In this document: in pieces, positions 4,279-41,093 of the stretch
Numbering within the stretch: the stretch's first letter is position 1
Layout of the letters: each line of letters starts with the position of its first letter
Made by a program: the position numbers and the translations under genes
The notes under the pieces: generated by a model
What the model was told of the DNA's origin: nothing
Seen by the model: only the letters and a program-made list of their open reading frames with translations
Databases searched by the model: none
Assembly (NCBI GenBank): GCA_964579415.1
Contig: CAZOGW010000003.1
Coordinates: 7,759 to 71,758 of the forward strand
DNA: 64,000 bases
Direction: 5' to 3'
From: an uncultured Acidimicrobiaceae bacterium
GTDB taxonomy: Bacteria; Actinomycetota; Acidimicrobiia; Spongiisociales; UBA5794

Positions 4279-7200
4279 TCAGGACTCGAAGGTGTAGCGC
4301 AGGGCCTTGGCGGTGCGGATCCCTCCCAGGCTGACGGAGCCCTGCGGGAGCACATTCAGATGGTTGAGCGGATCGGTGATGATCCGGACCTCCGGACCCT
4401 TGTCGCCCCGCTCGACGTTGCCGACCACGACGAGGAAAAACTGCTCGGTCACACGGGCACGACGGAACTCCGAGTTGGTAAGCGAAATCATCTCCGGGAT
4501 CGGGCCGGCATAGACCTTCAGCTCGAAGAAGTTCTCCAGGTCGTCGATCGCGTCGGCGCCGACATGGCGTTGGTGTCGGATGTCGATGATCTGTTGCTCG
4601 TCGCCGCCGAGTATGCGCCGCACAAGCGCCAGTCCGACCGACTCGCGCTCTGAGTCGGTGTAGTTCTTGGTGGGGCGTCCCCCCTCCGACGGTTTCTTGG
4701 GCTTCGACGGATCAGGATCCCGGGGCCCGCTTACCGGGGATGTCGACTTCATGAAGGTAAAGCTAGCCCGTCCCGTCCCCCCACCGACAATCTCGCCATC
4801 CTCATTCCTCAGGGTCAGGTTGTCCGGGTCGACGAGCATCCTGGTCGGCTTCGCTGGGCTCGCCTCGGAGGCCGCGGGCGCCTTCACGCGCTTGGTCTGG
4901 GAAGTGTCCTCGGGGGTCGAGCGCCGGTCCTTCCCCTGTTCGGCCAACTTCCGCAGGAGTTCCTCACTGCGCTCGTCGCGCTTCTTCTTCCACTCGGCGT
5001 CGAGCCGCGCCGCCGTCGTGATCTCTTCCTCGCGGTGCCCGTCGAGGGCGATCGTCCAAGCTGCTATCCAGTCATGAGCGACCCGGCGAGCGTCGCTGTC
5101 GAAGACCGAGGCGATGGCGTAGGCGCCTGCGCTTGGCGACCAGATCGCGGCTTCGTCAGCGACAAAGAACGCCCCAGCGGCCAGGTCCAGCCAGGCGTTC
5201 ACCGGGACTGTCTCGTCGAGGCCGCCATTCGGCTCGAGCAGCCTGACCCGCAGTTCCGGCGACTGCCGGACGCTCAATGCTGCCAGCTCGTCCCATGAGA
5301 CGCGCAGACTCTGCTCGGCCTTCGGGTCGCTCCGCGCGAGGTCCGCCCGGAGGTTAGCGATAGCCCCGGAGAAGACTTGCGTCAGGTTCGGGTCGTAAGC
5401 GGCGCTGTCGGCATCAATCACGTCCCCGTGCGAAGCGTCGAGGAGAGTCAGCCTGAAGGCGCCGATCAGGGAATCGAGCTGCGCCAGTGACCCCCCTGGG
5501 CTCCAGATCGGCACGCGATCCTTGAGGGCCTCGACGATCAGTTCGTTATGCGTCGCGTAGACCGGCCGCTTGCGTTCCCACCGATCACCGACCCAGACCG
5601 CCGCCTTTCTAGGCCTTCCCACTTCGCTCTCGGGTGCTCCGGCCAGCACCCGGAGCGCTTCGAGCATCACGAGCTTCTCGGCGGGGGTGAGCGATTTCTT
5701 GCGCGCGAGTTGGCCGAGCACTCGCTGCGCGTCATGGGCGCTGGGTAGGTGGATGCCGAGCAGCGTCCAGAGCGAGTCGGTACCTGACACGGAGGGCACG
5801 AAGTCGCGCATGCGCCCGAAGATCGGCGGACCGGCGAGCACCACGCTCGGGCGGCGCCAGCCACTTCGGGTCGCGATCAGGCCCTCGCCTCGACCGAAGG
5901 CGTCCCGGGCTGGACCCGCCGGCTGGCCGCCGAGGCGGTTGCCGCGGACCTGCGCGGCCAGCGCCTGGTAGAGCGGTGCCGCGAGGTCTTCAGCCGCCTC
6001 TGGCGTCAAGTTCGTATTGGCGCGCACTGCTTCGAGCTTCAGGATCAGCTCGGAAGCTGTCGGATCGCCCGCCACCCCGATGCTGGCCAGCACTTCGCGG
6101 TATGCCTCGATCTCGAGGGCGGGGCTCAGGTAGCGGCGAGGGTTGTCGCCGTAGAGGGCAACGGTCGCCGGACTCTTGATCCGCAATTGCCCCGGGGCCG
6201 TCGCGGTGCCGTTCTCTGAGGGCAGCCATGCGATCGAAGCGGTGCTGCTGACCCACCAGGCCTCGACGATGCCCTTGTTTTCCCAACTGTAGTAGGGCCT
6301 GGCTGCGCTGACTGTCGCGTGGTCGCCCAGACGATCCCAGGCCCGTGCGAGGGTCCCCAGCACTGCACCCGCTCGCCGGACCTGCTGGGCAGCGTCCTTC
6401 TCCTTCGCGATGCTGCTGAGGACGGCTTCAAGGTCGGGCGACGTCCAGTCACGTAGCGTGAAGGTCGCCTTGGCCTGCCGCAGTGCTTCACGCCGGCGCA
6501 GGGGTGAGCCTGGTGCCGAATCAGGTACGCCAGGACTGTAGTTCGACAGCCGGAATTGGTTGGCCGGGTGACTCTTGATGCGGGGGGCTACCTCGGCACC
6601 GAGCAGCCGGAACAGACGTTGGGCCCCAATGCCGCCGCCGTCCCTCCGGAACTTCTCCGAGTAGCGCCTGTCGATCCAGGTCAGCCCATGGGTCTTCCCT
6701 GCTGCCACGAACCAGGTGTTGACCTCTCGTTCGATGAAGTACGCATCGCACGGACGTGCTTGGACTCGCTTGCGCTCCCCGGAACGATCGTAGGTGACCG
6801 CGTCGACCTGGACCGCTTGGCCAAGGCCGAGGCCAAGTCCTGGGCGCTCGGTGTCCGGGATTGCTTCGAGTGCTCGGCGAAGCCCGTCGACCTGGGCGTC
6901 GGTCAGAGGGGTTTTCAGCATGGTTCCCGCCGTCCCAGCGCCGGCCAGCACGAGCAACGCGTCTGCGCTGGTCGCTGATGCCCGAAGCCATCTCTTCTGC
7001 TGAAGCCAGTCACGGATCACGGTCCACCCCGCCTGATCAATGAACGTCGGGTGGAGCCGCGCACCGACCCGCAGCAGCTCCCACAGGGGGTCGGGGTCAG
7101 GATCTGCCGGGAGCAGGACGGCTAGGCCGGGACGGCTGGACGGTGTGACGCGGGAGCCGTCCTCGAGCACGAGGCAAGCTCGTGACTCGAGCGCGGCGCT

Positions 7201-8787
7201 CATGCCCGCATTGACCGCGATGGCCAACAGTTGGGCAACGAACTGCGGCGTCCGCTGTTCGTCACCCAACAGGGTGCTCGCGGCCTGCACGCTCACCATC
7301 GTTGGCGTCATGGCACCGATGTCCCACAGGTCGTCCAGCACGTCGCGCCACCGATCACCCTCAGAGCGCGCCTCGGCGGCCAGAAAGCCGCGTGTTCCTG
7401 CGATCAGGATCACGTCATCCGCGGAGAGAAGCGAGGTGAGCTCGTCTGCCTCGTAGGCGAGATCACTCAAGCGGTAGGTGGTTCCTTCAGATTCAAACGT
7501 CAGGGCTTCGGCGAACTCAATACGTGCTCTCTGGAGCAGATGCTCTGCGAAGCCGGCGCGGAGTCTGCCGGTCGTGCGGTCGTCGGCATCGAACTCGGCG
7601 GTCGTCGGAACGGTTGCCCAGCTGTGGGCTGGCGCCTGTAGGAAGGCGTCAAGCGCCGCGTCTCGCCAGAGGTCGCTGAGCAACGGAACGAGCGCCAGGT
7701 TCCAGTCAGTGTCGGCGATATCGCGCCTGGACGGCTGAGGATCGAACTGTGCCAGCATCCGGAACGGCAGAGAGGTTCTGCGAACAGGCAAGCCGACATG
7801 GATATGCCCAGTGTCACCTTCGAAAAGTGCGAACGCGATGGCCACCGGCGTGCGAGAGCCCAGCGCCTTCCCCGCCCGCTCGACGCCTTCAGGAGTACGA
7901 GCGCTACGGGTGTAGATCAGCCACTCCCGGCCGTCAGCAGCCGACACTCGGCGCCGAGCCGTGCGGTCACCCGCCAGCGGGAGCAACTCCTCAGGGCCGA
8001 GCTCCAGGTGCAGCCTGGCGATCTCGTTTCCAGCTTCGTCATCGAGCCGTACCGACCTCAAGTGTCGGAGAAAGACCAGACCGGCGTCATCCCAGTACTT
8101 GAGCCACTTCTCGACGTCATTCGTGCTGATGGCCGCTCGCGTGAAGGGGATAGCGAACGTGGTCCATGAGCTGTCGACTCGGGGCCAGCCGATGTGCCCG
8201 TCCAGCGGCTGGATGGTGTTGGAGCTGAAGCGAACATGAAAGTGGCCCTGGTGGACGTCGAGAACGTCCGACAGCGAATGGAGCGTCTTCAACCCGATTC
8301 CGAAGCGGCCGAGCTTCGCCTCGTCGGCCACTTTGAGGCTGAGCCAGGGGATCGCCAGTGCCCACACGTCATGCAAGGTGAGTGCCGCACCATTGTGCGA
8401 GAACAACAGTTGTGAGCTGGAGGCGTCGATGGCAACAACGGCGTCGGATGCACCCAGATCGTCAGCGTTCTGGATCAGCTCGGCCAGCCCTTGAAGACGG
8501 TCGTCGCTGAGGTAGGCGGCGCTGTCACCAGCCCGCTGGAGGGCGGACCGGATGGACTTCGGCAGACTGTGCAACCGCTCGACCAACGCAAGGACACCGG
8601 CGTCGGCCGCAGCCTCGTCTGCCGGTGTGAGGGAGACGGTGCGCGGGGTCTCAGGGTCATGATCTGCGACCAGATGGGCCACCTCGGACGCCTCACGCGC
8701 CTCGAATACGCGCGGCGTCAACCCATTCGCCATGCCGCCTCCCGCCCGGCTCACGGACGCTGCCTGATCGATCATCTCGCAGTCCAC
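4279..8787 (-). CDS. Giant GHKL/HATPase_c (sacsin-like) ATPase with C-terminal DUF3883 (NO VEIN C-terminal-like) domain
   Basis: 1502-aa ORF. The Bergerat-fold N-box LAELIQNADDLGA lies near the N-terminus. The C-terminal region ...ILGGDEQQIIDIRHQRHVGADAIDDLENFFELKVYAGPIPEMISLTNSEFRRARVTEQFFLVVVGNV resembles DUF3883. Confidence 0.7.
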   Translation of the reverse strand: MDCEMIDQAASVSRAGGGMANGLTPRVFEAREASEVAHLVADHDPETPRTVSLTPADEAAADAGVLALVERLHSLPKSIRSALQRAGDSAAYLSDDRLQGLAELIQNADDLGASDAVVAIDASSSQLLFSHNGAALTLHDVWALAIPWLSLKVADEAKLGRFGIGLKTLHSLSDVLDVHQGHFHVRFSSNTIQPLDGHIGWPRVDSSWTTFAIPFTRAAISTNDVEKWLKYWDDAGLVFLRHLRSVRLDDEAGNEIARLHLELGPEELLPLAGDRTARRRVSAADGREWLIYTRSARTPEGVERAGKALGSRTPVAIAFALFEGDTGHIHVGLPVRRTSLPFRMLAQFDPQPSRRDIADTDWNLALVPLLSDLWRDAALDAFLQAPAHSWATVPTTAEFDADDRTTGRLRAGFAEHLLQRARIEFAEALTFESEGTTYRLSDLAYEADELTSLLSADDVILIAGTRGFLAAEARSEGDRWRDVLDDLWDIGAMTPTMVSVQAASTLLGDEQRTPQFVAQLLAIAVNAGMSAALESRACLVLEDGSRVTPSSRPGLAVLLPADPDPDPLWELLRVGARLHPTFIDQAGWTVIRDWLQQKRWLRASATSADALLVLAGAGTAGTMLKTPLTDAQVDGLRRALEAIPDTERPGLGLGLGQAVQVDAVTYDRSGERKRVQARPCDAYFIEREVNTWFVAAGKTHGLTWIDRRYSEKFRRDGGGIGAQRLFRLLGAEVAPRIKSHPANQFRLSNYSPGVPDSAPGSPLRRREALRQAKATFTLRDWTSPDLEAVLSSIAKEKDAAQQVRRAGAVLGTLARAWDRLGDHATVSAARPYYSWENKGIVEAWWVSSTASIAWLPSENGTATAPGQLRIKSPATVALYGDNPRRYLSPALEIEAYREVLASIGVAGDPTASELILKLEAVRANTNLTPEAAEDLAAPLYQALAAQVRGNRLGGQPAGPARDAFGRGEGLIATRSGWRRPSVVLAGPPIFGRMRDFVPSVSGTDSLWTLLGIHLPSAHDAQRVLGQLARKKSLTPAEKLVMLEALRVLAGAPESEVGRPRKAAVWVGDRWERKRPVYATHNELIVEALKDRVPIWSPGGSLAQLDSLIGAFRLTLLDASHGDVIDADSAAYDPNLTQVFSGAIANLRADLARSDPKAEQSLRVSWDELAALSVRQSPELRVRLLEPNGGLDETVPVNAWLDLAAGAFFVADEAAIWSPSAGAYAIASVFDSDARRVAHDWIAAWTIALDGHREEEITTAARLDAEWKKKRDERSEELLRKLAEQGKDRRSTPEDTSQTKRVKAPAASEASPAKPTRMLVDPDNLTLRNEDGEIVGGGTGRASFTFMKSTSPVSGPRDPDPSKPKKPSEGGRPTKNYTDSERESVGLALVRRILGGDEQQIIDIRHQRHVGADAIDDLENFFELKVYAGPIPEMISLTNSEFRRARVTEQFFLVVVGNVERGDKGPEVRIITDPLNHLNVLPQGSVSLGGIRTAKALRYTFES

Positions 8788-9010
8788 CGATGGAAGTTCA
8801 GCTCACAGCGGCGTTGCCGTACTTGACCGTCCCCGCCGCGCGACCCGAGTCCGATGTACGAGGACTGGCGTCCAGGGGCGCAGGCGCGGTCGAAGGCATT
8901 GAGCGGCGACTTGCGCGCCACTGAAGTATGCGTGCGCGAAGTGTGTGGAATACTGAAGTTCGTCCCGGCTGATTCACCCCTCCGGACATACAGCTTGAGG
9001 AGGTTCATGC

Positions 9011-9679
9011 ATGCTCCCGGACACACCCGTCGAGGCACTCGGCGCTCAAGCGCACGGTGTTCGCGGTCTGGTCGTCGACGTCGTCCGTTCCCGGCACGAC
9101 AAGGCGGCAGAAGCCCACCAGGTCTCGGGGTCGCGGTACGGGCTGGGCTTCGGCAGTCAGTGGCGTGACCTTCTGGACGATACGCACGATGCGCTGATCG
9201 AGCGCGGGTTTCGGTCGCACAGGCTGGTTCCCGGCGGTCACAAGGTCGGGGTTGTCAACGACTGTCTGGTCTACGTGTGGCGCGTCCCGGACAACGCGAA
9301 CGCGGTACGGGACTTCGCCTCCAGCCCGACGCGCCAGAACGGCTTCGTCGCGCCGCCGCCGCCAGCGATGCTGTGGGAGGGCCTCCTGCCTGAGGAGGCT
9401 GCGTCTGCGGAGGTTGCGAGCATGATGGAGGCGGTCCGCGACACGATGCCTCTGGTCCTCGTCATGGTCTGGTCGACGCCGCGGCAGCTCCTGTCTATAG
9501 AGTGGGCCGTCGCCATCCTGGACGACTCAGGCAAGGTCGAGCTGCGAGGGCAAGAGTCGCTCTGGGAGCCGGAGCTCGTCGCCGACGACGTGTTCTCGGG
9601 CGTCGAGTCCTTCGACAGCGGCACGCCAGAAGGCCCAACGATCGAGCCGCGCGAGCGGGACAGGCCTTCGGATGCGTGA
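9011..9679 (+). CDS. Hypothetical protein (222 aa); first gene of a three-gene plus-strand module
   Basis: The Shine-Dalgarno-like sequence GAGGAGG lies 10 nt upstream of the ATG. Its end overlaps the start of the next gene by 8 nt. GC-rich third codon positions. No motif recognised. Confidence 0.5.
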   Translation: MLPDTPVEALGAQAHGVRGLVVDVVRSRHDKAAEAHQVSGSRYGLGFGSQWRDLLDDTHDALIERGFRSHRLVPGGHKVGVVNDCLVYVWRVPDNANAVRDFASSPTRQNGFVAPPPPAMLWEGLLPEEAASAEVASMMEAVRDTMPLVLVMVWSTPRQLLSIEWAVAILDDSGKVELRGQESLWEPELVADDVFSGVESFDSGTPEGPTIEPRERDRPSDA

Positions 9680-10796
9680 CGACAATCCCGGGCTGTTCGA
9701 CCTGACCGGATCCGAGCAGGCGCACGGCCGGTTCGAGCCGGCGCGGCTCACCCAGGCCCGTGCCCGCCGCGGGTTGAGCAAAACGGACCTGGCCGCTGAG
9801 GTCGGAGTCTCGGCCTCGGCGGTGGGGCAGTACGAGGCAGGAGTGAACTCGCCTCGGCCCGACGTGGTGAACCGCTTGGCGCGCGCACTTACGGTGCGCG
9901 CGGAGTTCTTCAACGTCGGACGCCCGCTGGCGCGCGTCGACACCGTCCACGCGCATTTCCGCAGCCTGCGTTCGGCACGCGTCAGCGACCGCCAGAAGGC
10001 TCTGGCAACAGCGACCTTGGTCTGGGAACTGACGTTCGCCCTCGAGCGCTACGTCAGGCTGCCAGATGTCGACCTGCCCGTCCTCCCCGCCGGCACGCCG
10101 CCGCCGGTGGCCGCAGCTGCACTCCGCGAGCACTGGGCCTTGCCGGACGGTCCGGTCAAGCACCTGGTCGCCACTGCGGAGGCTCACGGCGTAGTCGTCG
10201 CGGTGCGTCCTCTTCGCGAGATCGACGCCGTGGACGCCTTCTCGGTTGTTATCGTCGAGCGGCCGATCATCATCACGACGCCTCGCCGAAGCGAGAACGT
10301 GTTCCGGCACCGCTTCTCGATCGCGCACGAGATCGGGCATCTCCTCCTGCATCGCGACACAGAGGAGTACAGCGCCGTGATCGAGAAGGAGGCCGACGAG
10401 TTCGCTGCCGCCTTCCTGACGCCGGCGGCCCCCATGGACGCGGCGTTGCCACAGCGGCTCGACCTTTCGGCACTGGACCGGCTCGGCAGGACATGGGGCG
10501 TGTCGCCGCATTCGCTCGTGCGTCGAATGGTCGAGCGCGGTCGTACTACGGAGTCGTCGGCGCGACGGGCTTACCAGCGCCTGGCCGCCGCTGACGATCC
10601 GCTGTCTGACCCGACCAGCGCGTACCCGGGGGAGATGCCATCGCTGCTGAAGAAGGCCGCGGAGTTGGCAGGTGAGCATGGCGCGGGAGTGCCCGCTCTC
10701 GCCCAGGCGCTGAAGCTCAGCGCCGCGCAGGTGAGTGATCTGCTCGGCGACGCAGACCACCGCCCGATTCTGCACCTCGTCGGCAGCGAGGACTGA
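9672..10796 (+). CDS. HTH_XRE DNA-binding domain fused to ImmA/IrrE-family zinc metallopeptidase (COG2856/DUF955)
   Basis: N-terminal RLTQARARRGLSKTDLAAEVGVSASAVGQYEAGVNSPRPDVVNRLARAL is an XRE-type HTH. Central FSIAHEIGHLLLH plus downstream EADEFAAAFLTP is the HEXXH...E signature of ImmA/IrrE. Confidence 0.8.
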   Translation: MRDDNPGLFDLTGSEQAHGRFEPARLTQARARRGLSKTDLAAEVGVSASAVGQYEAGVNSPRPDVVNRLARALTVRAEFFNVGRPLARVDTVHAHFRSLRSARVSDRQKALATATLVWELTFALERYVRLPDVDLPVLPAGTPPPVAAAALREHWALPDGPVKHLVATAEAHGVVVAVRPLREIDAVDAFSVVIVERPIIITTPRRSENVFRHRFSIAHEIGHLLLHRDTEEYSAVIEKEADEFAAAFLTPAAPMDAALPQRLDLSALDRLGRTWGVSPHSLVRRMVERGRTTESSARRAYQRLAAADDPLSDPTSAYPGEMPSLLKKAAELAGEHGAGVPALAQALKLSAAQVSDLLGDADHRPILHLVGSED

Positions 10797-10801
10797 CCGC
10801 T

Positions 10802-13543
10802 GTGGCGTCGGTGCAGAAGCAGGTGCAGAGCGCCGACGGCGTGATCTGCCAGAGCATCGCCAGTCTGGATGGCCACCGTGGCTTCGTCTCCCAGACCGTC
10901 CTCGCGCAGCTCCGAAACCTGGTCGAGGGCCTCATCGTCTGGGCGTGCCTCGAAGATCCGGCAGCCGAGTTCCACTACGACCAGGTGGGGTCGGCGCTGG
11001 TCGAGGTCAAGGCGAAGGCGAAGTTCCGCCTGCTCGGCAGGTTCCACAACCTGCTCCAGGCCAGCACCTCGCACTACACGCTGGACGGGGATCCGTCCGA
11101 GCGCCTGATGCTCAAGTACTACGAGTACCTGCTACGCACGCGCGATCTCGCGCTGAAGCAGTTCGGCATCGCGATCCTTCGCAACCTTGAGCTGTTCCCA
11201 GTGGATCTCGACCCGTCCCTGCGCGAGTACCACGAGAAGATCGCGGAGCGCATCGAGGCAGTCCGGGGGACGCCGACGGAGCCTCGCCGCGAGCGCTACT
11301 ACGTCCACAGCTCGCGACCGCTCTTCGTCGGTGGCCGGATCTACTACGAAGTCACGCTTTCGCTCGCCCACGACTGGAGGAGCAAGTTCGACCGCACGAT
11401 CGCGTTCACCGACGTCGATATGTCCGACAAGTACGCGGCGTACCTGTACCTGTCAAGCGAATCGATCACCGTGCTCGGCCAGACCATGCCAATCCTGATC
11501 ATCCGTGCCTGGGAGGTCTCGATCCGCCCGTGCGAGCTCAAGAACTTCGCCCGCATCTTCGGCCAGGAGTCGCGAATCCAGTCGAGCCACACCGAATACC
11601 GCAACCTGATGCGGTATTTGACGACGACCCGCTCCAGCCTCCTTGATCTCGTCGATATGGCCGACGCGAGCTACAACCAGATCCGCGCGTGGGCTCTCCG
11701 TGACTCGCGCGGATCGGCGGCGTTCTTCCCCGCGCTCGACCAGGCCCGGGAGATCATCCGCGCGAACCGCCCAGGCTCGCGCGTGCTGCGGTACCTGATG
11801 CTTCAGATGCGCAACCAGGTCATCAAGGCTCAATCCGACGCGACACCCTGCAGCTGGCTGTCAAATCTGCGGCTGTCATGGAGCTGTCGGCCGTTCGACA
11901 CTATGCCCTTCTGCACCTCACCGCGTGGACACAACCCACGCTTCGCTGACCTCGCGGACAGCCTGGATGCAACCGGCCGTGAGCACGAACTGCTGGCACG
12001 CCGAGTGAGGACCAACGTCGAGCAGCACGGCGCGATCTACACCCCGGCCGGGGAGCTTGAAGATCTCGGCGACGTGGACCAGCTGATCGCCAAGCACAAC
12101 CGCCTCCTGCCGCCGACCGACCGGCACGCCCCTCGGAAGCTCAAGCACGAGAACGGGCACGTGTTCATCGTCGGCTACGAAGACGACACTGTCGCGATCA
12201 TCGAGAAGCTGCAGGAGGCCGCCGGCGAGGGCCTCGACCGGCATGCCGACGACGTGCAGGACTGGTTGGACGCGAACCCGGGCATGATCGACGACCCCTC
12301 GAAGGCCGAGGCTCTGAAGGCCCTCTTCGAGCAGTCGAACGTCGCCCTCGTCGTCGGAGCAGCCGGCACGGGCAAGTCGACCATGGTGAACCACATCGCC
12401 AACTACTTCTCTCCCAAGAGCAAGCTCTTCCTCGCACACACGAACCCGGCCGTCGACAACCTGAAGCGACGCGTCGACGCGCCCAATACCGACTTCAGCA
12501 CGATCACCAGTCATGTCAAGAAGAGTGAGGACTTCGGCTCCACCTACGACGTGCTGGTCATCGATGAGTGCAGCACCGTCGACAACGCGAGCCTGCTGAA
12601 GGTGCTCAACTGCACCACGTTCGATCTGCTCGTGCTCGTCGGCGATGTCTACCAGATCGAGTCGATCCAGTTCGGCAATTGGTTCAGCCTCGCCCGCTCG
12701 TACATCCCGGAAGGCTCAACGTTCGAGCTCACAAAGCCGTTCCGAACTGACAATGCTGAGCTGCTCACGCTGTGGCACAGAGTGCGCAACCTAGATGATC
12801 GAATCGAGGAATCGCTGTCGAAGAACGGCTACTCGATGGTGCTGGGCGAGGATTTGTTCACGCGCCGGAGCGACGACGAGATCGTTCTCTGTCTGAACTA
12901 CGACGGCCTTTACGGCATCAACAACGTCAACCGCTTCCTGCAGGCGGGCAACCCAAGCCCAGCCGTCGCCTGGGGGGAGTCGCTCTACAAGGTCGGCGAT
13001 CCCGTGCTATTCAACGAGACTGACCGATTCCGGCCCGTCATCTTCAACAACATGAAGGGCACGATCGCCGCCATCGATCGCGCGCCCGGACGGATCACGT
13101 TCGACGTCGACCTCGAACGAGAGGTCACCCCAGGCGAAGTGGCCTGGACAGAACTGCGCTGGATGGCGGGGTCGACAGTCCAGTTCGATGTCTACGAGCG
13201 CGCGAACAGCGACGAGGACGATGACACGCTCAACACCCTCATCCCGTTCCAGACCGCGTACGCGGTGTCGATCCACAAAGCCCAAGGCCTCGAGTACGAC
13301 TCGGTCAAGGTCGTCATCACCGATGCCAACCAGGAGCGGATCTCTCACAACATCTTCTACACGGCGATAACCCGAGCACGCCGGCGGCTCGGGATTTTCT
13401 GGACCCCGGAGACGCAGCAGAGGATCCTCAGCCGGCTCGCCGTACGAGAGAACACGAAGGACGAGAGCCTGCTGAGGGCCCGGCGCGGTGTGACTCCACT
13501 CGCTGGTCGGCAAAGGCGGCAGAAGGGGCGGCCGTCGGTGTAG
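10802..13543 (+). CDS. Large protein: unknown ~520-aa N-terminal region fused to a RecD/TraA-like SF1 helicase (AAA_30/UvrD_C_2-type)
   Basis: GTG start 6 nt after the ImmA-like stop. Walker A VVGAAGTGKSTM, Walker B VLVIDECSTV, C-terminal AVSIHKAQGLEYDSVKVV and YTAITRAR motifs. The N-terminal half has no recognisable motif. Confidence 0.8.
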   Translation: MASVQKQVQSADGVICQSIASLDGHRGFVSQTVLAQLRNLVEGLIVWACLEDPAAEFHYDQVGSALVEVKAKAKFRLLGRFHNLLQASTSHYTLDGDPSERLMLKYYEYLLRTRDLALKQFGIAILRNLELFPVDLDPSLREYHEKIAERIEAVRGTPTEPRRERYYVHSSRPLFVGGRIYYEVTLSLAHDWRSKFDRTIAFTDVDMSDKYAAYLYLSSESITVLGQTMPILIIRAWEVSIRPCELKNFARIFGQESRIQSSHTEYRNLMRYLTTTRSSLLDLVDMADASYNQIRAWALRDSRGSAAFFPALDQAREIIRANRPGSRVLRYLMLQMRNQVIKAQSDATPCSWLSNLRLSWSCRPFDTMPFCTSPRGHNPRFADLADSLDATGREHELLARRVRTNVEQHGAIYTPAGELEDLGDVDQLIAKHNRLLPPTDRHAPRKLKHENGHVFIVGYEDDTVAIIEKLQEAAGEGLDRHADDVQDWLDANPGMIDDPSKAEALKALFEQSNVALVVGAAGTGKSTMVNHIANYFSPKSKLFLAHTNPAVDNLKRRVDAPNTDFSTITSHVKKSEDFGSTYDVLVIDECSTVDNASLLKVLNCTTFDLLVLVGDVYQIESIQFGNWFSLARSYIPEGSTFELTKPFRTDNAELLTLWHRVRNLDDRIEESLSKNGYSMVLGEDLFTRRSDDEIVLCLNYDGLYGINNVNRFLQAGNPSPAVAWGESLYKVGDPVLFNETDRFRPVIFNNMKGTIAAIDRAPGRITFDVDLEREVTPGEVAWTELRWMAGSTVQFDVYERANSDEDDDTLNTLIPFQTAYAVSIHKAQGLEYDSVKVVITDANQERISHNIFYTAITRARRRLGIFWTPETQQRILSRLAVRENTKDESLLRARRGVTPLAGRQRRQKGRPSV

Positions 13544-14262
13544 ACGTCAGGGCAGGCTCCGGCCCCGAGTAACCTTCGCGATGGGTGTGCGATCGACCAC
13601 CCGTTCCCGCTGATCAATGTCGTGATCGACCTGGCCCGGACCGATGCAATGCCCAGGCTGGGACCGTGGACGACCTGCGCGATGGCCCGACCCGCTGATG
13701 CGCGCCCGCCGGTGGGCGCCCTGCCCTGTTCAGGCACCCACTGGGCCGGCATGGGCAGAGCCACTGGTCACAGATTGCCTTGGAGTGGGTGCGGGCCGGC
13801 CGGCCGTCGATCGCAGGTGCTGTGCGATCCGTGGGTGCTGTAGCGGACAGAGAGATCCGTAGCGGCGGCGTAGCGGGTCTGGTGGCCGGTGGCCGCTACA
13901 CCCTTGGGGTCCACGGCTCAAGGGCCGCAACCGGTTCGCCGGGACAGATCGAGCACGACCGGGGCCGCGGGGGCGGTGCCCAGCGCCGCCATTCTGCCCG
14001 TCCTGCAACGGCTCCGAGCGGCCAGCGCGGACGTGTAGCGCGTGTAGCGCCTGGTGGGGGGCAAGGGCGAGGACCCGGGGATACGGGAGCACCCAGGGGC
14101 AGTTGGGGCGATCACCCAGTACGCGCCTCGACTGCTGGCCCGGGTCGCCACCGTGTAGCGCGACAGCTTCACCCGATTCCTGCCCGTGAGCGTCCTTGCC
14201 GGGCCCACCAGTGGCACCCGCGGCGAGGATCGGCCCCCGGCGGGCCTTCGCGGTGGCCCACT

Positions 14263-14713: not shown

Positions 14714-15823
14714 ATGGGGGTCCTCTGGCCTCTCGAGCCTCACACGGAGGCCAAGCACCGTCTCTACAAGAGATACCTGGACGCGTGGTTCCCCATCTTC
14801 CTGCAGCAGGGGTGGGTCGATCGGGTGACCTACGTCGATGCGTTCGCCGGGCCTGGTGAGTATGAGGGCGGCGAGGAGGGCTCGCCGTTGTTCGCGATCG
14901 ACCGCCTGCTCCACCATGAGGCTCGTCAGCGCATGAACCTCACTCGCAATCGCGTCACGATGCTCTTCATCGAGGGTGACCAGGCCCGGCACAAGCACCT
15001 GACCGACCTGCTTCTGGCGCGGTTCGGCCCCCTTGATCGGCTACCTGTCACGGTGATCGTGATGCAGGGCCGCGCCGAGCTGGACACGCTGCCACTCCTG
15101 ACCCAAACCGGGGCGTGGGGCTCCCCAATCCTCGCCATCTTCGACAGCTGGGGGAACGTAGGCGTCCCCTGGGAGCACTTGCAGGCGATCGCTGCTAACC
15201 CATCCAGCGAGGCCATCGTGACGTTCGGCGCGAACTGGTTCAGCCGCCGCGAGCGTGAAGAGCCACGGAAGTTGGATGTCGTGTTCGGCGGCTCCCAGCA
15301 CTGGACCGCCAGCGACAAGGCGCTGCAGCCAAGCGACCGCTGGCGGTTCTGGCTCGAGACATACCGCGCCGCCATGCTCCGAGCTGGGTTCGACTACTGC
15401 CTGCCTTTTCAGGTTGTCCCCCACACGGGCCAGCCCTTGGATCTGGTCTTTGGGACCGGGCACCATCGGGCTGTCGAGGCCTTCAAGGATGCGATGTGGA
15501 ATGTCGATCGCTCGGACGGAATGCGGTTCAGCGATCCCCGAACCACGATCGCCAAGGAGGCCGCCATGGCAGCCGTACAGCCCACCCTCTTTGAAGATCC
15601 CGACTCCCCCGACGCCGAACTGCTCGGCTTCGTGGCAGACAGCCTCCAGGATGGGCCGAAGTCACTGGAGAACGTCCGGGACTTCCTGTTGCGCGAGACC
15701 GCGCGTTGGCTCCCGAAGCATGCAAAGGAAGCAGTGCAGTACCTGATCGACGAGGGCCGCGTTGTGCGGGATCCTGCCACCGGTCGACTCACAAGGACAA
15801 GCGTTCTGCGCTTGGTGGGCTAG
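14714..15823 (+). CDS. tcmP: TcmP (three-Cys-motif partner protein)
   Basis: N-terminal MGVLWPLEPHTEAKHRLYKRYLDAWFPIF matches the TcmP family hallmark. Convergent with, and overlapping by 4 bp, the Gp37/Gp68 partner gene. Confidence 0.75.
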   Translation: MGVLWPLEPHTEAKHRLYKRYLDAWFPIFLQQGWVDRVTYVDAFAGPGEYEGGEEGSPLFAIDRLLHHEARQRMNLTRNRVTMLFIEGDQARHKHLTDLLLARFGPLDRLPVTVIVMQGRAELDTLPLLTQTGAWGSPILAIFDSWGNVGVPWEHLQAIAANPSSEAIVTFGANWFSRREREEPRKLDVVFGGSQHWTASDKALQPSDRWRFWLETYRAAMLRAGFDYCLPFQVVPHTGQPLDLVFGTGHHRAVEAFKDAMWNVDRSDGMRFSDPRTTIAKEAAMAAVQPTLFEDPDSPDAELLGFVADSLQDGPKSLENVRDFLLRETARWLPKHAKEAVQYLIDEGRVVRDPATGRLTRTSVLRLVG

Positions 15824-16563
15824 CTGGCAAGTTCGGGCATCTCGTCCCACGTGCGGCCGTCGAGTTCACGGCCTCCACTCTTGGATCGAATCCCGCCCCA
15901 CTGCTTGAAGAAGAAGGGAGTGCGCGCCGCGACGCACTGATCGCGGATGTCCCGGATCCATTCAGGTTCGACGGGCCGGGCGCTGAACCCGCTCTCGCCA
16001 CCAGCGATGACCCAGTCGACGCCATCGAGGGGGAGTTCCGGGAGCTCGTTCAGCAGCGGCTCACACGAAAGGAAACGCACCGCTGCTGGTACCTTCGCCA
16101 GATCGTGGATCCGGTCGTAGTGGTCGGGCGACTCGACGCTCACACCCATCCACACGTTGCTGGGCCACTCGAGCTTGTCAGCGATCCTGGTCAGCCGGTG
16201 GGCCCGCTTCGTTAGGACTTGGTAAGTGTGGTGGGGAGTGTCGGCCATGACCGCGAACACCTGCTGGATGAAGTCCATCCCGACCCGAGCATGGAACAGG
16301 TCGCTCATCGAGTTCACGAAGACCACCCGTGGTCGTTTCCACGAGTACGGGATGAGGAGCGCATCGGGGTGAGCGGTCACGCCGAAGCCGGGTCCACTGG
16401 TACGCGCGTCGCCGTCGTTCTGGTACTTGGGATTACCCATTGCCTTAAGTCGCTTCGCGAGCGTGAGCGCGTAGCAGTTGTCACATCCTGCGGAGACACG
16501 GTCACACCCGGTCGTTGGGTTCCAGGTGGCCTCCGTCCACTCAATCGCACTCTTGTCGCCCAT
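15820..16563 (-). CDS. Phage Gp37/Gp68 family (PF07505/DUF5131) three-Cys-motif protein; canonical partner of TcmP
   Basis: MGDKSAIEWTEATWNPTTGCDRVSAGCDNCYA carries the family's conserved N-terminal W-N-P-x-x-G-C...C-x-x-C motif. Confidence 0.85.
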   Translation of the reverse strand: MGDKSAIEWTEATWNPTTGCDRVSAGCDNCYALTLAKRLKAMGNPKYQNDGDARTSGPGFGVTAHPDALLIPYSWKRPRVVFVNSMSDLFHARVGMDFIQQVFAVMADTPHHTYQVLTKRAHRLTRIADKLEWPSNVWMGVSVESPDHYDRIHDLAKVPAAVRFLSCEPLLNELPELPLDGVDWVIAGGESGFSARPVEPEWIRDIRDQCVAARTPFFFKQWGGIRSKSGGRELDGRTWDEMPELAS

Positions 16564-17594
16564 GACCTCACCGTAGTTGGTCGAACATGCGTTCGATAGT
16601 GAGCGCCACTCTGTACCTCACTGGTCTTCTTGGCTTCCGCGCAGAGATTCGTGCGATGACAGCGCGCGGTGGGGTGGATCTTCTCTCGGACAAGCCAACA
16701 CGCGTTGGGCCTGGGGCGCGAGCCGCTCATGTACCCCGCGGCTTGACCTCCCAAGCTGCAGCTGGGCAGTGCGTGCACCAACTCGCGACCACCACCCCGC
16801 GGAGTGAGTCTTGAGCTGGCGGCCATCGGTGGCCCTGTCCGGGGCCCTGGCAGGGGCGGCGGCGTTTCATCTGGCCCACTTCTGGTGATGAGGCGGTCAC
16901 AGCACCTCGGCGACTTGTCCAAGTCTCCGGGCATGAGGTGGCTGTAGGTACGGCGCATCGTCTGTTCGTCGTGGCCGTGGTAGGCGGCGATGACCTGGTC
17001 GGAGATGCCCTTGGAGCGCATCAGGGACACGGAGCTGTGACGGGCCTCGTGGAGGGTCAGCTCCCGCACCTTGGCCTTGCGGCACAGCCTCTTCCAGTGC
17101 TCGGAGTAGAGCCGCGGTCTCATCGGCTCCCCGATTTCGGTGATGGCCAGGTAGCCGTCGGCCACGTGCGCCTCGCCGAGGTGCTCGGCGTGCTTCGCGC
17201 GCATCTCCTTGAGCGCCTCCACGTAGCTGGTGGGGATCGAGAGTTGGCGCGCGCTGTTGTGGCTCTTGGGGTCGCCCTCGGTGACGTTCTTGGTGTCGAC
17301 GAGGACGCGGCCGCGGGAGATGGTGACGATCCCATGTTCGAGGTCCACGTCGCTCCAGCGCAGCCCGAGGACCTCGGACCGGCGGAGCCCGGCCAGGCTC
17401 AGCAGCCAGCAGGCGGACAGCCATTCGTCGGCTGCGGCGGACTTGAGTGCGGCGCGCTCCTTGTCGGTGTGCGCAGTCCGCCCGGTGGGGGCCTCGCCGC
17501 GGGGTTTGATCTTGCGCCCGGGGTTGCTGGCCAGGATTGCCCGATCGAGCTCGGCCAGTTTGCCCCTTCGGAGATGGTCCGGAATTCGCTCCAC
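16377..17594 (-). pseudogene. Tyrosine recombinase/phage integrase remnant. The catalytic domain is present (about 16950-17594) but the N-terminal arm/core-binding domain is missing, and the ORF runs on about 190 codons past the catalytic Tyr into low-complexity sequence
   Basis: LSLAGLRRSEVLGLRWSDVDL...HEARHSSVSLMRSKGISDQVIAAYHGHDEQTMRRTYSHL carries the R..H..R..Y catalytic residues. The frame upstream of the GTG at 17594 closes within 17 codons at a TGA (17643-17645). The tail PPPLPGPRTGPP... overlaps the Gp37/Gp68 gene. Confidence 0.6.
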
Positions 17595-17803: not shown

Positions 17804-20800
17804 ATGTTCCAGCCCCACGCTTCGCGAGCGCCTGCCGTCGCGCTTCCGCCAGGGGCGCCGCCCAATAATCCCAGCGTGACGGCCATCGCGGAGGCCCGCC
17901 GGACTTGGATGGCGTACGACCGTGCCTTCCACGTCCAGGCTGACTCGGTGTCGCTGGTCGCCGAGCTCATGCTTCCGGCATCTGACCTCGCCGAGATGGT
18001 CAACGCTCTCACCGTTATCGGCACGCAGCCGCCCGCCGCGACAAAGGCGGACGTGAAGCACGGCGCCACGGCGCTGGCGGTGCTGATGCCCAACGTGTGT
18101 CGCGAAGACTACGGCGAAGCGACCTTCTGGCCCCACTTTTGGGACCGGATCGGTGTCCCACAGCCCCGCCGGCAGGCACTCCAGACCGCCTTCGGCGAGA
18201 CCTTCCTCGAAGGACTCAAGCGCGCGCGGTGGCCCGCGTTCGATGACGTTGGACAGAAGTACCTCGCCAACATCCTCATGCATGCCGGCGTCCCCGATGC
18301 GCTGCTTCCGGACTGGTTCGAGCTGCTGGACGCGGCGACCCGCGCCGTGACCTTGGAGCCCGACCTCGTCACCCGTTGGATCAGGGATAGAGCGGGTGTG
18401 GGAGGCCTGCCGTGGGTGAACGTGCCCCTGCGCCGGCTGGTCTTGCATGGCGGCCCGTTCGCGGCGGATCTGATCGAGCGCAGCCTGACGTTGCTGGACC
18501 TTGTCCGATCGGGCTCCGACCGCGACCCGGCCTTCCTGGGCCTCCCTCCGGCCTACCTCACAGCTGCCGAGACCCACTGTCGCGCCCGCGCTGCTCTACG
18601 GGCGACCGGGGGCATCCGGGCAGCCTCGGCTCCCGTGCTGCGGCTGGTGCCGGAGGAGGGTCGAGTCGAGCTCGCCCTGCCACAGCTGGAAGACGTCGTA
18701 GACACGTTGCGCTGGCTGGTCAAGATCGAGCAGCGCACCGTCGAGATCGTCCCGCATCGGCTCTGGGGCGGCGATCGGGTCCAGTTCGCAGGGGCAACAG
18801 TCCCGGTGGACACACCGACACGGTCCATTGAAGTCCGTGCCATCGGCGCGGATCGAGCCGCCCTGGTACCGGTCGTTCCTGATGACCTGCCGTTGCTCGC
18901 CTTCGACCGAAGCGGTGCGGCTATTCGGGTAGCTGAGGGACTGCCAGCCGAGCCGGTATGGCTCCTGGGACCTCCGTCGGGGTCGGCTGCCGGTCCCCAG
19001 CTCAGCGTCGTGGGAGGCCGCCTGATGGCCGACATGGGGTCACCCCTGGGATGGGCCGGCTGGCCGCTTTCCCTGTGGGATCTCGGCGGCGCCGAAGCGG
19101 TCGAGGTGGGGGATCACACAGTAGGTCTCACACGCCGCACGCGTGCCCAGATCGAGTCGGCGCCTGCCGGGCATGTCGAGGCCGCCTCGATCGCCGGGCT
19201 GCCCCTGCATACGCAGCGTCCGGCCGTCAGTCTCCCGGCTGGCCACGCACAGTGGTCGGTGACGGTCAGCGACTACCAGACCGGTCAGATCGTGACCGAG
19301 CTCCGACACCAGGGTGAGGCTATGAGCCTGGACCCGTTCGCGGGGATGCCCGCCCCCATCGTCGGCGCATTCACGATCGTTGTGCGTGGACCTTTGGGCC
19401 GCGGCGCCAGCCGCACTTTCGCGCTCGCCGAGGGACTCAGCGTCAAGGTCGAGCCACACTTCCGGACCTTCGGACCTGACGGGCTGCGACCTGCCCGGGC
19501 CGCGATCGCCTTGCCTGGGGGCACGACCTCGTCTGCTGTGGTGGAGTTCGCCGCGGCTGAGCGACTCAGCTCCGTGCTGGTCACCGGTGCTGAGGGGCGG
19601 CAGGAGCGCATTGTCATCCAGCCCCCCTCGCTCGCTGTCGCGATCCAAGCTGAGGGCCAACCGCCGGGAGCGTGGAGCAACGGCCCTATCACGGTGCTGA
19701 AAGAGGACTTGGTCCATACGCACTTGCTCTTGCGGATCGGGCTCGGAGCACAGCCGGAGCTGGCCGTGTGCAGCGGAAACAGCGCGGTTCAAACTCTGGA
19801 CCCGATCTCGGTGACAGCAGAGCGGAACGTCGCATACAAGCTTGCCCGGATCGTCGACTCGGTTGATCACCTTGGGGCCAATGGACTCGTGCTCGGTCGT
19901 ACGTCCGACGATCCGGGGGTCCTGGTCGCGCGAATCGTTCCGCGGAAGCTGGCCACAGGAATCGCGGTCGACGACCCGGGGCTCCGGTTGGTCGATCCAG
20001 GCAGCGGTGACCTGGAGGTTGCGCTGTGGAGCACGGGCGAGCCTTGGCGTCCACCCATCGTCCGACGCTGCGACCAGGACGGTCGCATTGCGCTGCTCCC
20101 TGGCGATGTTCTCTCCGGAAGAGTCGTCGCCGTGCCCCGAGTCAGCGACCCGTGGAGCCTGCCCGACCCGTTCCCGCGATTCCCCTACCGGTTCAGCATG
20201 CTCGTCAGCGATCCCATGTCGGCCGAGGAGGAGTCGACCATTGCGCCCGCCGATACCTCGGTTGAACGGGCGTGGGCCACGGTCCTGCTCAACGTGGTGC
20301 TGCCGGGCTCCGTCCAGGCCAGCGGGCTCGCGGACGCCCGCCAGGCCCTGGATGCGCACGGACCGGAGGCCCTCGCTGCACTATCGACGTTCGCCCTGCC
20401 GCCAACGGAATCAGCAGCGGCCCTCGTCCGCACAGGCGTCGCTGGGGCATGCTCGAATGTCGCGGGCGATGACCTCAGCATCGCTGAAAGCCTTCGCGCA
20501 GATCCTGTGGCCGCTTCCCTGGCGCACCTGCCGACGGTGATGGCGCGACCCGACGACTTTCCGGAAGCACGCCTCGCGGTGCGCGACGCGTTGGGCGATG
20601 CGGGGCTGGCCTTCCTCGACACCGGTGTGGACGATCACATGGCTGCTGGCGCTTACGGGGATGACCCCTCGCTGATCGCGCTCGCACGACTCCGGAAGGC
20701 CGACGTGGCGCGGTTCGAGACGTTGCTGGCGTCCATGGCGCTGCGGCCGGTCGGGCTGCTCCACCCTGACAACCGGGTTCTCCGGTCGGTCGAGATCTTG

Positions 20801-21157
20801 GAGCGTGTCGGAGCCGAGCGCGTTCGGATCCTTGCCAAGGACTCGCTCAAGCTCGTGGTGACCGTCCGGGCATCACTGGCGAAGTCAGGGTTCGACCGGG
20901 CCGCTCACGCAATCGAGGAGCGAGGCGTGTCCGACGGTACGCCGTGGCTCAACCTCTCGGCCGCGTCGCTCGCCTGGTGCATAGCCCTGCGATACGGGGC
21001 TCGGGGACATGAGCTTGAGAGGCTGAGCCCACATCCTCAGATGTCCTCCTGGCGCGAGAACGCGCATGCCATAGCACCACTACAAGCCGTTGACCTCGTG
21101 CTGGCGGAGATCCATGCCTCGCACGACCTGCCGATCAACGATGGGAGACGACGGTGA
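17804..21157 (+). CDS. Large hypothetical protein (1117 aa), translationally coupled to the downstream helicase+DUF1998 gene; DruH-like by position (Druantia type III)
   Basis: No recognisable motif. Its stop TGA (21155-21157) overlaps the GTG start (21154) of the next gene as GTGA. Size and context match DruH. Confidence 0.6.
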   Translation: MFQPHASRAPAVALPPGAPPNNPSVTAIAEARRTWMAYDRAFHVQADSVSLVAELMLPASDLAEMVNALTVIGTQPPAATKADVKHGATALAVLMPNVCREDYGEATFWPHFWDRIGVPQPRRQALQTAFGETFLEGLKRARWPAFDDVGQKYLANILMHAGVPDALLPDWFELLDAATRAVTLEPDLVTRWIRDRAGVGGLPWVNVPLRRLVLHGGPFAADLIERSLTLLDLVRSGSDRDPAFLGLPPAYLTAAETHCRARAALRATGGIRAASAPVLRLVPEEGRVELALPQLEDVVDTLRWLVKIEQRTVEIVPHRLWGGDRVQFAGATVPVDTPTRSIEVRAIGADRAALVPVVPDDLPLLAFDRSGAAIRVAEGLPAEPVWLLGPPSGSAAGPQLSVVGGRLMADMGSPLGWAGWPLSLWDLGGAEAVEVGDHTVGLTRRTRAQIESAPAGHVEAASIAGLPLHTQRPAVSLPAGHAQWSVTVSDYQTGQIVTELRHQGEAMSLDPFAGMPAPIVGAFTIVVRGPLGRGASRTFALAEGLSVKVEPHFRTFGPDGLRPARAAIALPGGTTSSAVVEFAAAERLSSVLVTGAEGRQERIVIQPPSLAVAIQAEGQPPGAWSNGPITVLKEDLVHTHLLLRIGLGAQPELAVCSGNSAVQTLDPISVTAERNVAYKLARIVDSVDHLGANGLVLGRTSDDPGVLVARIVPRKLATGIAVDDPGLRLVDPGSGDLEVALWSTGEPWRPPIVRRCDQDGRIALLPGDVLSGRVVAVPRVSDPWSLPDPFPRFPYRFSMLVSDPMSAEEESTIAPADTSVERAWATVLLNVVLPGSVQASGLADARQALDAHGPEALAALSTFALPPTESAAALVRTGVAGACSNVAGDDLSIAESLRADPVAASLAHLPTVMARPDDFPEARLAVRDALGDAGLAFLDTGVDDHMAAGAYGDDPSLIALARLRKADVARFETLLASMALRPVGLLHPDNRVLRSVEILERVGAERVRILAKDSLKLVVTVRASLAKSGFDRAAHAIEERGVSDGTPWLNLSAASLAWCIALRYGARGHELERLSPHPQMSSWRENAHAIAPLQAVDLVLAEIHASHDLPINDGRRR

Positions 21158-34300: not shown

Positions 34301-34446
34301 CCATCCAGAGCGAGGAAGGCTCCGATCTCGAAGTGCCCACTGGCGATGTCTATCGCCGAACTGATGTCGCACCACTCTCGGACGTACTGCAGCGCCTTCC
34401 ACTCCTCGTCGGTGTTGTCGACGATGAACTGCTCAGGAGTCGCCAT
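31360..34446 (-). CDS. Phospholipase-D-family (HKD) nuclease domain fused to SNF2-family helicase (DrmC+DrmD-like fusion), 1028 aa
   Basis: N-terminal KFHAKAYITHSKLKVVGSAALVGSSNFTRPGLTQNVELN is a PLD HxK(x)4D...N motif. SNF2 motifs GFLTDGVGLGKTFVGLML (I), DVIIIDEAHNFRN (II) and VFLLTATPINN (III). C-terminal helicase lobe LRVLISTDVLSEGVNLQDGTLLVNYDIHWNPVRLMQRIGRVDR. Confidence 0.85.
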   Translation of the reverse strand: MATPEQFIVDNTDEEWKALQYVREWCDISSAIDIASGHFEIGAFLALDGAWQKVNKIRLLIGGETSRTTADAIAAALDTSIVIERQNGDAFLAGIEAVVDGIRNDKIEIRVYKPKKFHAKAYITHSKLKVVGSAALVGSSNFTRPGLTQNVELNVRFQGPEVADLQSWYEQHWELATPVNAELLSVLEHNIRGFTPFEVYAKALHALTANVDQTDKSWEESESVIYPMLAPYQREAFHALIEMSRRWNGGFLTDGVGLGKTFVGLMLTEYYAVRHRKNVLIMATKTGQDAVWSPELKEKLPSLFGQFSNVLVRAHTDLTTKQGLAEIEHLAERADVIIIDEAHNFRNHGKTPTEENPWGSRWWRMHEICQGKTVFLLTATPINNSFFDLVHQAELFTGVDADDHFASIGVNSLRKYTVELEKPFKSNVPDHAAIAGLMSRDKLFQSIIHQSSRKYAIESSRIVGGADVVFPETQVPRVVEYEFGALYSPLFTELQNAFNRKTPLFVLPMYYPLAFSKDEDVDTVAENRQRQVVALIRTIFLKRFESSLAAFAGSCLDLSAKILHWLDVNTRIDPDQQMRLADWRAANDSTLQAIHDRYRSTLEEVWHEEDLTEEELGELGVNLVGGEYNLQEMIDAAFEDLDQLNRFMDLTLAGAGYDDKYLRLRDLLLGPSKAGIRTLDKAVFTPEFRNEQVIVFTEFADTARYLEEQLRKDGVADIDRLDGTRSNDRYAMIKRFAPFYNKVSAADRRTLAPLRVLISTDVLSEGVNLQDGTLLVNYDIHWNPVRLMQRIGRVDRRMNPVIEAQLIREKPSAKKSRGHIQIRNFLPPAEIEALLTLYNRVQNKTLMISKALGIPGGKLFDESDMFDDVKVFQAFKDEYDGDIAPIEALRLTWLQLVKDDPGLEELIERLPEGISVAKTGEPSGVFICRRVPVLTKAHDDDADSEWTLDTGAVEWALRTSDGVERGLHTVDAAISAQPTDQAQAFSDRSSLRATLREFERGETKRLRKETQLPLDAPSPKTLCWMEIR

Positions 34447-41092: not shown

Positions 41093-41093
41093 G

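Follow-up and report, generated by a model that had tools for sequence, protein, structure and literature searches.

Three closely packed genes at positions 9011–13543 of a contig from an uncultured Acidimicrobiaceae bacterium raise the question of whether they constitute one functional system or an association of separable parts. They encode proteins of 222, 374 and 913 amino acids (aa) and lie in a 64,000-nucleotide (nt) stretch of DNA, here called the window, which is a large defence island. A first-pass annotation, made from the letters of the sequence, had described the genes as a tight three-gene module with an architecture not recognized as that of any named defence system. We favor a different reading, and consider it reasonably probable: two autonomous, horizontally mobile defence-type modules were joined once into one operon in one actinobacterial lineage. 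Two of the components are already catalogued, the RosmerTA antitoxin RmrA (the 374-aa protein) and the PADLOC candidate PDC-S53 (the 913-aa helicase). New here are the partner family of RmrA (the 222-aa protein), its conserved putative operator, a domain model of PDC-S53, and the recognition of the trio as what appears to be a lineage-specific operon fusion.

Gene anatomy and coding signal

The 222-aa gene (9011–9679, plus strand, ATG start) encodes a putative RmrT-type toxin/effector of a new family, for which RmrA is an obligate partner. It is followed on the same strand by the RmrA-type gene (9672–10796, ATG start), which contains a helix-turn-helix (HTH) domain at 9741–9911, an M78 peptidase domain at 10176–10526 with a HEIGH motif at 10326–10340, and a C-terminal helical region. 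The PDC-S53 family gene (10802–13543, plus strand, GTG start) comprises a predicted HEPN-like bundle (10802–11266), an OB fold (11279–11521), a helical and alpha/beta linker, and an SF1B RecD/Dda-like helicase core on the plus strand (12299–13411) with its Walker A motif at 12365–12379.

Both the list of open reading frames (ORFs) and a reading of the junctions agree with the earlier description of three co-oriented plus-strand ORFs with an 8-nt overlap between the first two, where the sequence reads GATGCGTGA (ATGCGTGA). The spacer ahead of the helicase gene had been given as 6 nt and is in fact 5 nt (TGA-ccgct-GTG). A Shine-Dalgarno sequence, GAGGAGG, is located 6 nt ahead of the start of the 222-aa gene, and GAGGA is found 8 nt ahead of the GTG of the helicase gene. 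Across the three genes the GC content is 0.82–0.88 at third codon positions (GC3) and 0.41–0.50 at second positions (GC2), in a sequence of about 67% GC. This codon-position pattern indicates that the three frames are coding and that the antisense ORFs are spurious. The 222-aa protein, RmrA and the helicase are conserved families (459 relatives were found for the 222-aa protein and 3737 for the helicase), and the ORFs are therefore not chance occurrences. The exact sequence of the window helicase is absent from the assembly index, and the only exact match of the 222-aa protein is a single 7-kb Logan copy of the same locus. When the trio was compared with plasmids by megablast, one short match of 76% was found, to a hypothetical gene on a Nocardioides plasmid.

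The pair and the helicase occur independently

With one genome taken per species, the helicase census comprises at least 552 relatives, and the loci of the best 80 were compared. These 80 relatives are all full-length, have at least 57% identity, and are distributed among Actinomycetota, Proteobacteria, Cyanobacteria, Planctomycetota, Nitrospirota and Bacteroidota. The 222-aa/RmrA pair is found directly upstream of the helicase in 5 of the 80 loci and in decayed form in one more (L004), while the remaining 74 are without it. In a clustering of the flanking ORFs, no family reaches more than 7 of the 80 loci, the runners-up being RmrA and type I HsdR. Since the pair is present in so few loci and there is no recurrent neighbor, the helicase is normally solitary, which fits the "S" in its PADLOC label.

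The reciprocal comparison started from the 222-aa gene and took in 55 metagenomic loci and four annotated genomes (Kribbella, Nocardia, Rhodococcus and Agrococcus). In each of these genomes, and in every one of the 43 loci whose sequence extends far enough, the end of the 222-aa gene is overlapped by an RmrA orthologue (bit score >500, E ≤ ~1e-160). Of the 43 loci, which have room for a further gene after rmrA, 15 have the helicase there and 28 do not. The 222-aa/RmrA pair is thus obligate and the third gene optional. The co-occurrence analysis therefore does not bear out the three-gene module as an obligate unit, the pair being missing from most helicase loci and the helicase from most pairs. 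As judged from these comparisons of sequence, two autonomous modules were fused into one operon, giving a trio specific to one lineage.

Genes downstream of the 28 unlinked pairs are heterogeneous. They include OLD/GajA-like, DUF6973, DUF6119 and DUF4192 genes, an ECF sigma factor and a Mu transposase, and in some cases the downstream gene is on the opposite strand. It is possible that insertions concentrate in the slot downstream of the pair, or that the slot holds exchangeable effectors. A co-oriented gene is located 20–77 nt behind an unlinked pair in L118 (from 2145), L132 (7823–9481), L124 and L125 (7822–8292) and L088 (9999–10892). These genes encode a DUF6119 protein of 552 aa, an unknown product of 156 aa, and a protein of 297 aa whose N-terminus is PDC-S60-like.

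RmrA is a fused HTH and M78 zinc peptidase

Pfam identifies an HTH_3 domain (residues 28–78) and a Peptidase_M78 domain (residues 169–285) in the 374-aa protein, and the HEIGH motif, at residues 219–223 and followed by EKEADEFAAAFL, is intact. The protein had been described as a fusion of an XRE HTH domain with an ImmA/IrrE peptidase, of the type seen in mobile elements and defence islands, and this description holds. Fourteen PADLOC RmrA profiles match the protein, the best being PDLC03955 (E = 2.4e-85, residues 15–369 of 371). It also matches phrog_2439 over its full length, the NCBIfam spr1629 repressor/antitoxin family under the cutoff, and the PADLOC capP (E = 5.7e-17) and capH (E = 2.1e-08) profiles. 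Its translation contains no cysteine, and a sequence search of the PDB gave nothing close to it.

RosmerTA consists of a zinc-peptidase antitoxin paired with diverse toxins, and rmrA resisted deletion (bioRxiv 10.1101/2022.05.11.491447). The RmrTA system of the Gordonia phage Kita protects against phage, and cleavage of the HTH has been proposed as a regulatory step (Ernits et al. 2023, PMC10440598). The locus in the window resembles RosmerTA in being a two-gene operon of a variable partner and an HTH/M78 zinc-peptidase protein (Millman et al. 2022; Ernits et al. 2023), and its RmrA family, like the Kita system, is also phage-borne (phrog_2439). It thus has both a zinc-peptidase antitoxin that matches the RmrA profiles and a tightly linked, co-conserved partner gene. 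It differs from RosmerTA in that the 222-aa partner belongs to no PADLOC, Pfam or PHROG family and, unlike the Kita toxin with its predicted membrane localization, is soluble. The pair here is, moreover, operon-fused to a third gene. Because RmrT families are heterogeneous by definition (PMC10440598), the 222-aa protein is a new partner to which the RosmerTA class is still open.

An XRE HTH and an M78 (COG2856) HExxH peptidase are also shared with CapH/CapP, ImmR/ImmA and DdrO/IrrE. The M78 peptidases CapP and PprI/IrrE are activated by single-stranded DNA (ssDNA), and CapP together with CapH controls many immune operons. By analogy, the switch logic is plausibly alike, with a damage- or ssDNA-activated peptidase lifting repression. 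Unlike in those systems, the repressor and the peptidase are here one chain, and an obligate 222-aa partner is added. A CapH/CapP-type regulator pair was ruled out, as the HTH and M78 domains are fused in the 374-aa chain and RmrA, being free of cysteine, is without a CapP-type cysteine switch.

The 222-aa protein represents a new partner family

Searches of Pfam, NCBIfam, PADLOC and PHROG gave no match to the 222-aa protein, nor did a sequence search of the PDB. Among 38 diverse members of its family (the window protein and 37 remote ones) there is likewise no PADLOC match at E ≤ 0.01 and no meaningful Pfam match. An exhaustive profile search shows that the family comprises 98 clusters at 50% identity, mostly actinobacterial, and that its members are all stand-alone proteins of about 215–260 aa. 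The AlphaFold2 (AF2) model has a confident core, with a predicted local distance difference test (pLDDT) score of 77 overall and above 90 for 103 residues. In the model, two long helices are followed by a three-stranded sheet and then, after an acidic loop that is disordered, by three further strands; the tail is also disordered. The residues conserved over the superfamily are H29, W90-R91, S105, R108, S155 and W165. A PD-(D/E)xK nuclease was considered and rejected, and we do not call the protein a nuclease, because the conserved residues do not form a D...(D/E)xK motif.

The tail contains the motif F201-D-x-G-x-P (residues 201–206; window positions 9611–9628), which is conserved superfamily-wide despite the low confidence and predicted disorder of this region. 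It looks like a candidate docking or cleavage peptide for RmrA. By analogy with RosmerTA, we infer that the 222-aa protein is a putative RmrT-type toxin/effector. The Agrococcus homologue (L088, 8001–8810) is annotated as 269 aa, with a start upstream of the promoter motif described below (8026–8063 in that locus). Since the annotated start precedes this conserved motif, it is probably incorrect, and the actual length of the protein would be about 230 aa.

The helicase is a full-length PDC-S53 protein with a distinct N-region

The 913-aa protein matches PADLOC PDC-S53 (PDLC05035) with E = 0 and 1312.3 bits, residues 1–897 aligning with positions 1–896 of the 900-position profile. With this match and that of RmrA, two parts of the architecture prove to be catalogued, whereas the first-pass annotation had recognized no named system in it. 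Pfam places superfamily 1 (SF1) helicase domains at residues ~500–870, with the Walker A motif GTGKS at 522, and finds no domain in residues 1 to ~500; the earlier description of an N-region free of known domains therefore stands. The protein, including its N-region, matches phrog_325, "Dda-like helicase", whereas its PDB sequence matches are limited to the motor. The motor core (~500–870) matches RecD2, RecD and Pif1 sequences and structures, and there are weak PADLOC matches to typeIV_RecD, Nhi, AbiO and GajB.

An AF2 model of residues 1–510 (pLDDT 76) consists of a four-helix bundle (1–155), a five-stranded beta barrel corresponding to an OB fold (160–240), a helical region (243–345), and a less confident alpha/beta region that runs into the motor. 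In this model the N-terminal bundle appears HEPN-like. HEPN domains bear their catalytic motif at the position equivalent to the start of helix 4. In the helicase, the most conserved stretch of the N-region is SERLMLKYYEY at the start of helix 4, where R101 is present and the histidine is absent. The sole Rx4-6H match in the N-region, R76-x5-H82, occurs in an actinobacterial subset, and other lineages have N at position 76. Because the Rx4-6H motif is not conserved, a canonical HEPN RNase was set aside. The suggestion in the first-pass annotation that the N-domain could be an effector or a sensor fits the HEPN-like and OB-fold model.

Two identities for the protein were tried and rejected. The RecD2 model (TIGR01448) covers residues 402–877 only and scores 115.7 bits, with the cutoff at 500. 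For a TraA/TrwC/TraI relaxase-helicase, TraA_Ti scores 62.5 against a cutoff of 590, over residues 461–628 only, and residues 1–500 contain no relaxase domain. The first-pass annotation had itself named a relaxase or RecD2 N-domain, with the trio conserved in a conjugation context, as the finding that would refute its reading; structure prediction and profile searches show neither N-domain, and the flanking genes form no conserved conjugation operon. The SF1B motor core is thus common to RecD2/Dda/Pif1, type IV RecD, Nhi, AbiO and GajB, whereas only the PDC-S53 family has the 500-aa N-region with its linker and its predicted OB fold and HEPN-like bundle. PDC-S53 is a single-gene candidate in PADLOC-DB v2.0.0, and the window helicase is a full-length member of this family of solitary genes in variable contexts. 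It differs from the others in that, in the window and in its clade, its own upstream region is absent and the gene is located 5 nt behind rmrA.

A conserved motif precedes the 222-aa gene

A promoter/operator-like motif, CTGAAG-N25-ACTGAAG, is found on the plus strand at 8921–8958, 53–90 nt upstream of the start of the 222-aa gene. It encloses TGCGCG and an extended -10-like box, TGn-(C/A)ATACT, and is near-invariant among 18 upstream regions aligned over 165 nt. The motif is unique in the window, where 0.02 matches would be expected by chance. It is present once in each of 33 loci, always ahead of the 222-aa gene and whatever the downstream gene, and is found in none of the solo-helicase loci. 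A search of the upstream region for inverted repeats found none, and the upstream alignment shows that the conserved element is a direct repeat. These results suggest that 8921–8958 contains a promoter and a putative RmrA operator. In linked loci this would also be the only evident promoter for the helicase gene, which has lost its own upstream region and starts 5 nt behind rmrA, so that its transcription most likely begins at the promoter under RmrA control. The 222-aa gene and the TmtA gene described below are divergent over a 223-bp intergenic region.

History of the junction

In a neighbor-joining tree of 88 helicases, the pair-linked copies all belong to one actinobacterial clade, together with a solo copy (L003) and the copy behind the decayed pair (L004). 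Since all pair-linked helicases form one clade, the junction between the pair and the helicase probably arose once. The distance from the rmrA stop to the helicase start is 3–5 nt in every linked locus, and solo helicases have unrelated DNA upstream. The simplest reading of these sequences is one ancestral capture of PDC-S53 behind rmrA, after which the trio would have spread as a unit, with repeated later separation, as in L108.

Various stages of decay can be seen in individual loci. Transposase-like ORFs lie between rmrA and a helicase remnant in L108 (7798–12037), all three genes are fragments in L136, and a 3′ remnant of rmrA is ahead of an intact helicase in L004 (6408–6992). The solo helicase of L079 has an in-frame stop at codon 50 (~7150).

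The flanks of nine linked loci are all different and contain IS110, resolvases, Tn3-like genes, TrwC (two loci), TraG, a primase, Hachiman and housekeeping genes. Because these flanks differ completely, the trio is cargo of various mobile elements rather than part of a conjugation operon. One of the TrwC relaxases is near the Kribbella copy, and one helicase homologue is found on a Rhodococcus plasmid.

The surrounding defence island

Defence-type genes recur over most of the window, and several long ORFs have no PADLOC match. Upstream of the trio, a full-length TmtA (Tiamat) homologue of 1502 aa with a sacsin-like ATPase motif is encoded on the minus strand at 4279–8787 (PADLOC PDLC03968, E = 0). 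Downstream, a gene for TcmP, the three-Cys-motif partner (14714–15823, plus strand), and a DUF5131 gene (15820–16563, minus strand) converge with a 4-nt overlap of their 3′ ends, and together match PADLOC PDC-M30/M41. A tyrosine-integrase ORF (16377–17594, minus strand) overlaps the start of the DUF5131 gene by 187 nt; its catalytic domain ends at about residue 220 and is followed by some 180 low-complexity residues. A frameshift, an end that was called wrongly, or decay of the integrase may explain this.

At 17804–25800, on the plus strand, a 1117-aa ORF overlaps by 4 nt the gene of a 1548-aa DruE-like helicase (PADLOC DruE, E = 4e-178). The 1117-aa ORF has no match in any library, and the arrangement resembles Druantia type III with an unrecognized partner in the position of DruH. 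Genes on the minus strand encode a type IIG restriction-modification (RM) enzyme (28025–31363), which overlaps the gene of an HKD(PLD) and Snf2 helicase protein (31360–34446); the GC minimum of the window (0.59–0.63) is located at 28025–34446. Further genes encode a 1535-aa protein whose C-terminal third is OLD/GajA-like (36641–41248, minus strand), an MkoA-like (Mokosh) protein (48826–52356, plus strand) and a SIR2/ThsA-like protein (55157–56866, plus strand).

Discussion

The observations above can be combined into a model of two joined modules. Module 1 (8921–10796) would be a RosmerTA-class two-gene unit, in which an operator-driven 222-aa toxin/effector is translationally coupled to RmrA. 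Following the precedents of ImmA/ImmR, IrrE/DdrO, CapP/CapH and RosmerTA, RmrA may be antitoxin and sensor in one. In uninfected cells RmrA would repress the promoter at 8921–8958 via its XRE HTH and hold the 222-aa protein harmless. An infection or DNA-damage cue, possibly infection-derived ssDNA, would then switch on the M78 peptidase, which would cleave or inactivate the HTH or the neutralizing part, and both repression and neutralization would end. Once freed, the 222-aa protein might bring about arrest of the cell or of the phage; the PDC-S53 helicase, putatively co-transcribed in this clade, would be induced alongside. Module 2 (10802–13543) would be the PDC-S53 helicase, whose SF1B motor follows a HEPN-like bundle and an OB fold. 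It is solitary and would act singly in most genomes, and most likely loads on single-stranded nucleic acid of the phage via its OB fold and 5′–3′ motor. An anti-phage activity of the locus would be the expected outcome.

Several points weigh against this interpretation. The 222-aa protein has no match to a known RmrT model, no recognizable catalytic motif and no transmembrane segment, so that the toxin label rests on position and analogy. Gene order in RosmerTA is variable, with 58% of systems toxin-first, and position alone therefore cannot tell a toxin from a neighbor. The RmrA tree interleaves helicase-linked and unlinked pairs, which requires repeated loss or recombination and might also indicate a functionally exchangeable downstream slot. 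A consensus scan of 8600–14000 gave no sigma-70 promoters and chance-level terminators, as expected for a high-GC actinobacterium, and co-transcription is accordingly deduced from the 5-nt spacing only. PDC-S53 is only a candidate; we found nothing in the literature on PDC-S53 or on tested PDC candidates, and no experiment on any of the three families.

The alternatives differ in what they make of the third gene. In an integrated three-gene system, or if the pair is a portable sensor-switch cassette that controls any downstream effector, the helicase would be the real effector here, RmrA would act like a fused CapH–CapP regulator, and the effectors elsewhere would include an OLD nuclease, DUF6119 and DUF6973. 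The retention of the 3–5-nt junction over Marmoricola, Amycolatopsis, Microbacterium, Kribbella and metagenomes, with rare loss in the linked clade, is what one would expect of such a system. Several unlinked pairs also have a co-oriented gene 20–305 nt downstream, some of them defence-like (OLD/GajA-like, PDC-S60-like, DUF6119), and the matches of RmrA to both capP and capH profiles, the many immune operons regulated by CapP and CapH, and the variable gene order of RosmerTA agree with it too. We nevertheless consider it unlikely. In some of the 28 loci without the helicase the downstream gene is on the opposite strand or unrelated and the pair stands alone, the genes in that slot include non-defence ones (the ECF sigma factor and the Mu transposase), and the helicase is normally partnerless. 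A pure regulator would leave the obligate 222-aa partner unexplained, and RmrA has no CapP cysteine switch. In a related proposal, the pair would be a portable, self-contained infection-sensing switch with its own operator. It would insert before varied defence effectors, among them an OLD-family nuclease and a PDC-S60-like protein as well as DUF6119, DUF6973 and the PDC-S53 helicase, and gate their expression by proteolysis, with the 222-aa protein, which carries the F-D-x-G-x-P motif on its disordered tail, as substrate or co-sensor of the peptidase. We regard this as rather unlikely.

It is also conceivable that the pair is a toxin-antitoxin for addiction or stabilization of a mobile element, without a direct anti-phage role, that the helicase is the replication or repair helicase of the element, and that their adjacency reflects hitch-hiking on plasmids, transposons and integrative and conjugative elements (ICEs). 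The IS110 transposases, resolvases, Tn3-like genes, TrwC relaxases, TraG and primase around linked loci, the helicase homologue on a Rhodococcus plasmid, and the presence in PHROGs of both the RmrA-like phrog_2439 and the helicase-like phrog_325 would be in line with this. The window and several related loci are, on the other hand, dense defence islands (Tiamat, Hachiman, type I and IIG RM, OLD), PADLOC classes the helicase family as a phage defence candidate, and the RosmerTA systems tested experimentally do defend against phage, which makes the explanation decidedly improbable. A control unit of conjugation or of an ICE, made of an ImmR/ImmA-like switch and a TraA/TrwC-type relaxase-helicase, is essentially excluded. 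What points to it are the NCBIfam TraA_Ti and TraA matches, which are in the helicase core and far under cutoff, the integrase 3 kb downstream, and the relaxase near the Kribbella copy. The TraA matches, however, cover the segment given above or the C-terminal motif only, and the part of the protein where a relaxase should be is modeled as the HEPN-like bundle and OB fold. Relaxases are near only 2 of the 9 linked loci and as separate proteins, and the helicase flanks in the 80 loci have no conserved type IV secretion system (T4SS) genes.

On the preferred reading of two modules joined in one lineage, an unnamed architecture gains an identity, as a RosmerTA-type module and the PADLOC candidate PDC-S53. 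The separability of the modules guides the choice of constructs, namely the trio and, each by itself, the pair and the helicase, and the putative operator and C-terminal tail motif conserved in the 222-aa family are directly testable. The analysis also provides a first domain model for PDC-S53 (HEPN-like bundle, OB fold, SF1B motor), whose gene is present in more than 550 species of at least six phyla. Finally, the fused operon offers a convenient way to ask if a switch based on an M78 peptidase can make a defence gene unrelated to it inducible by infection.

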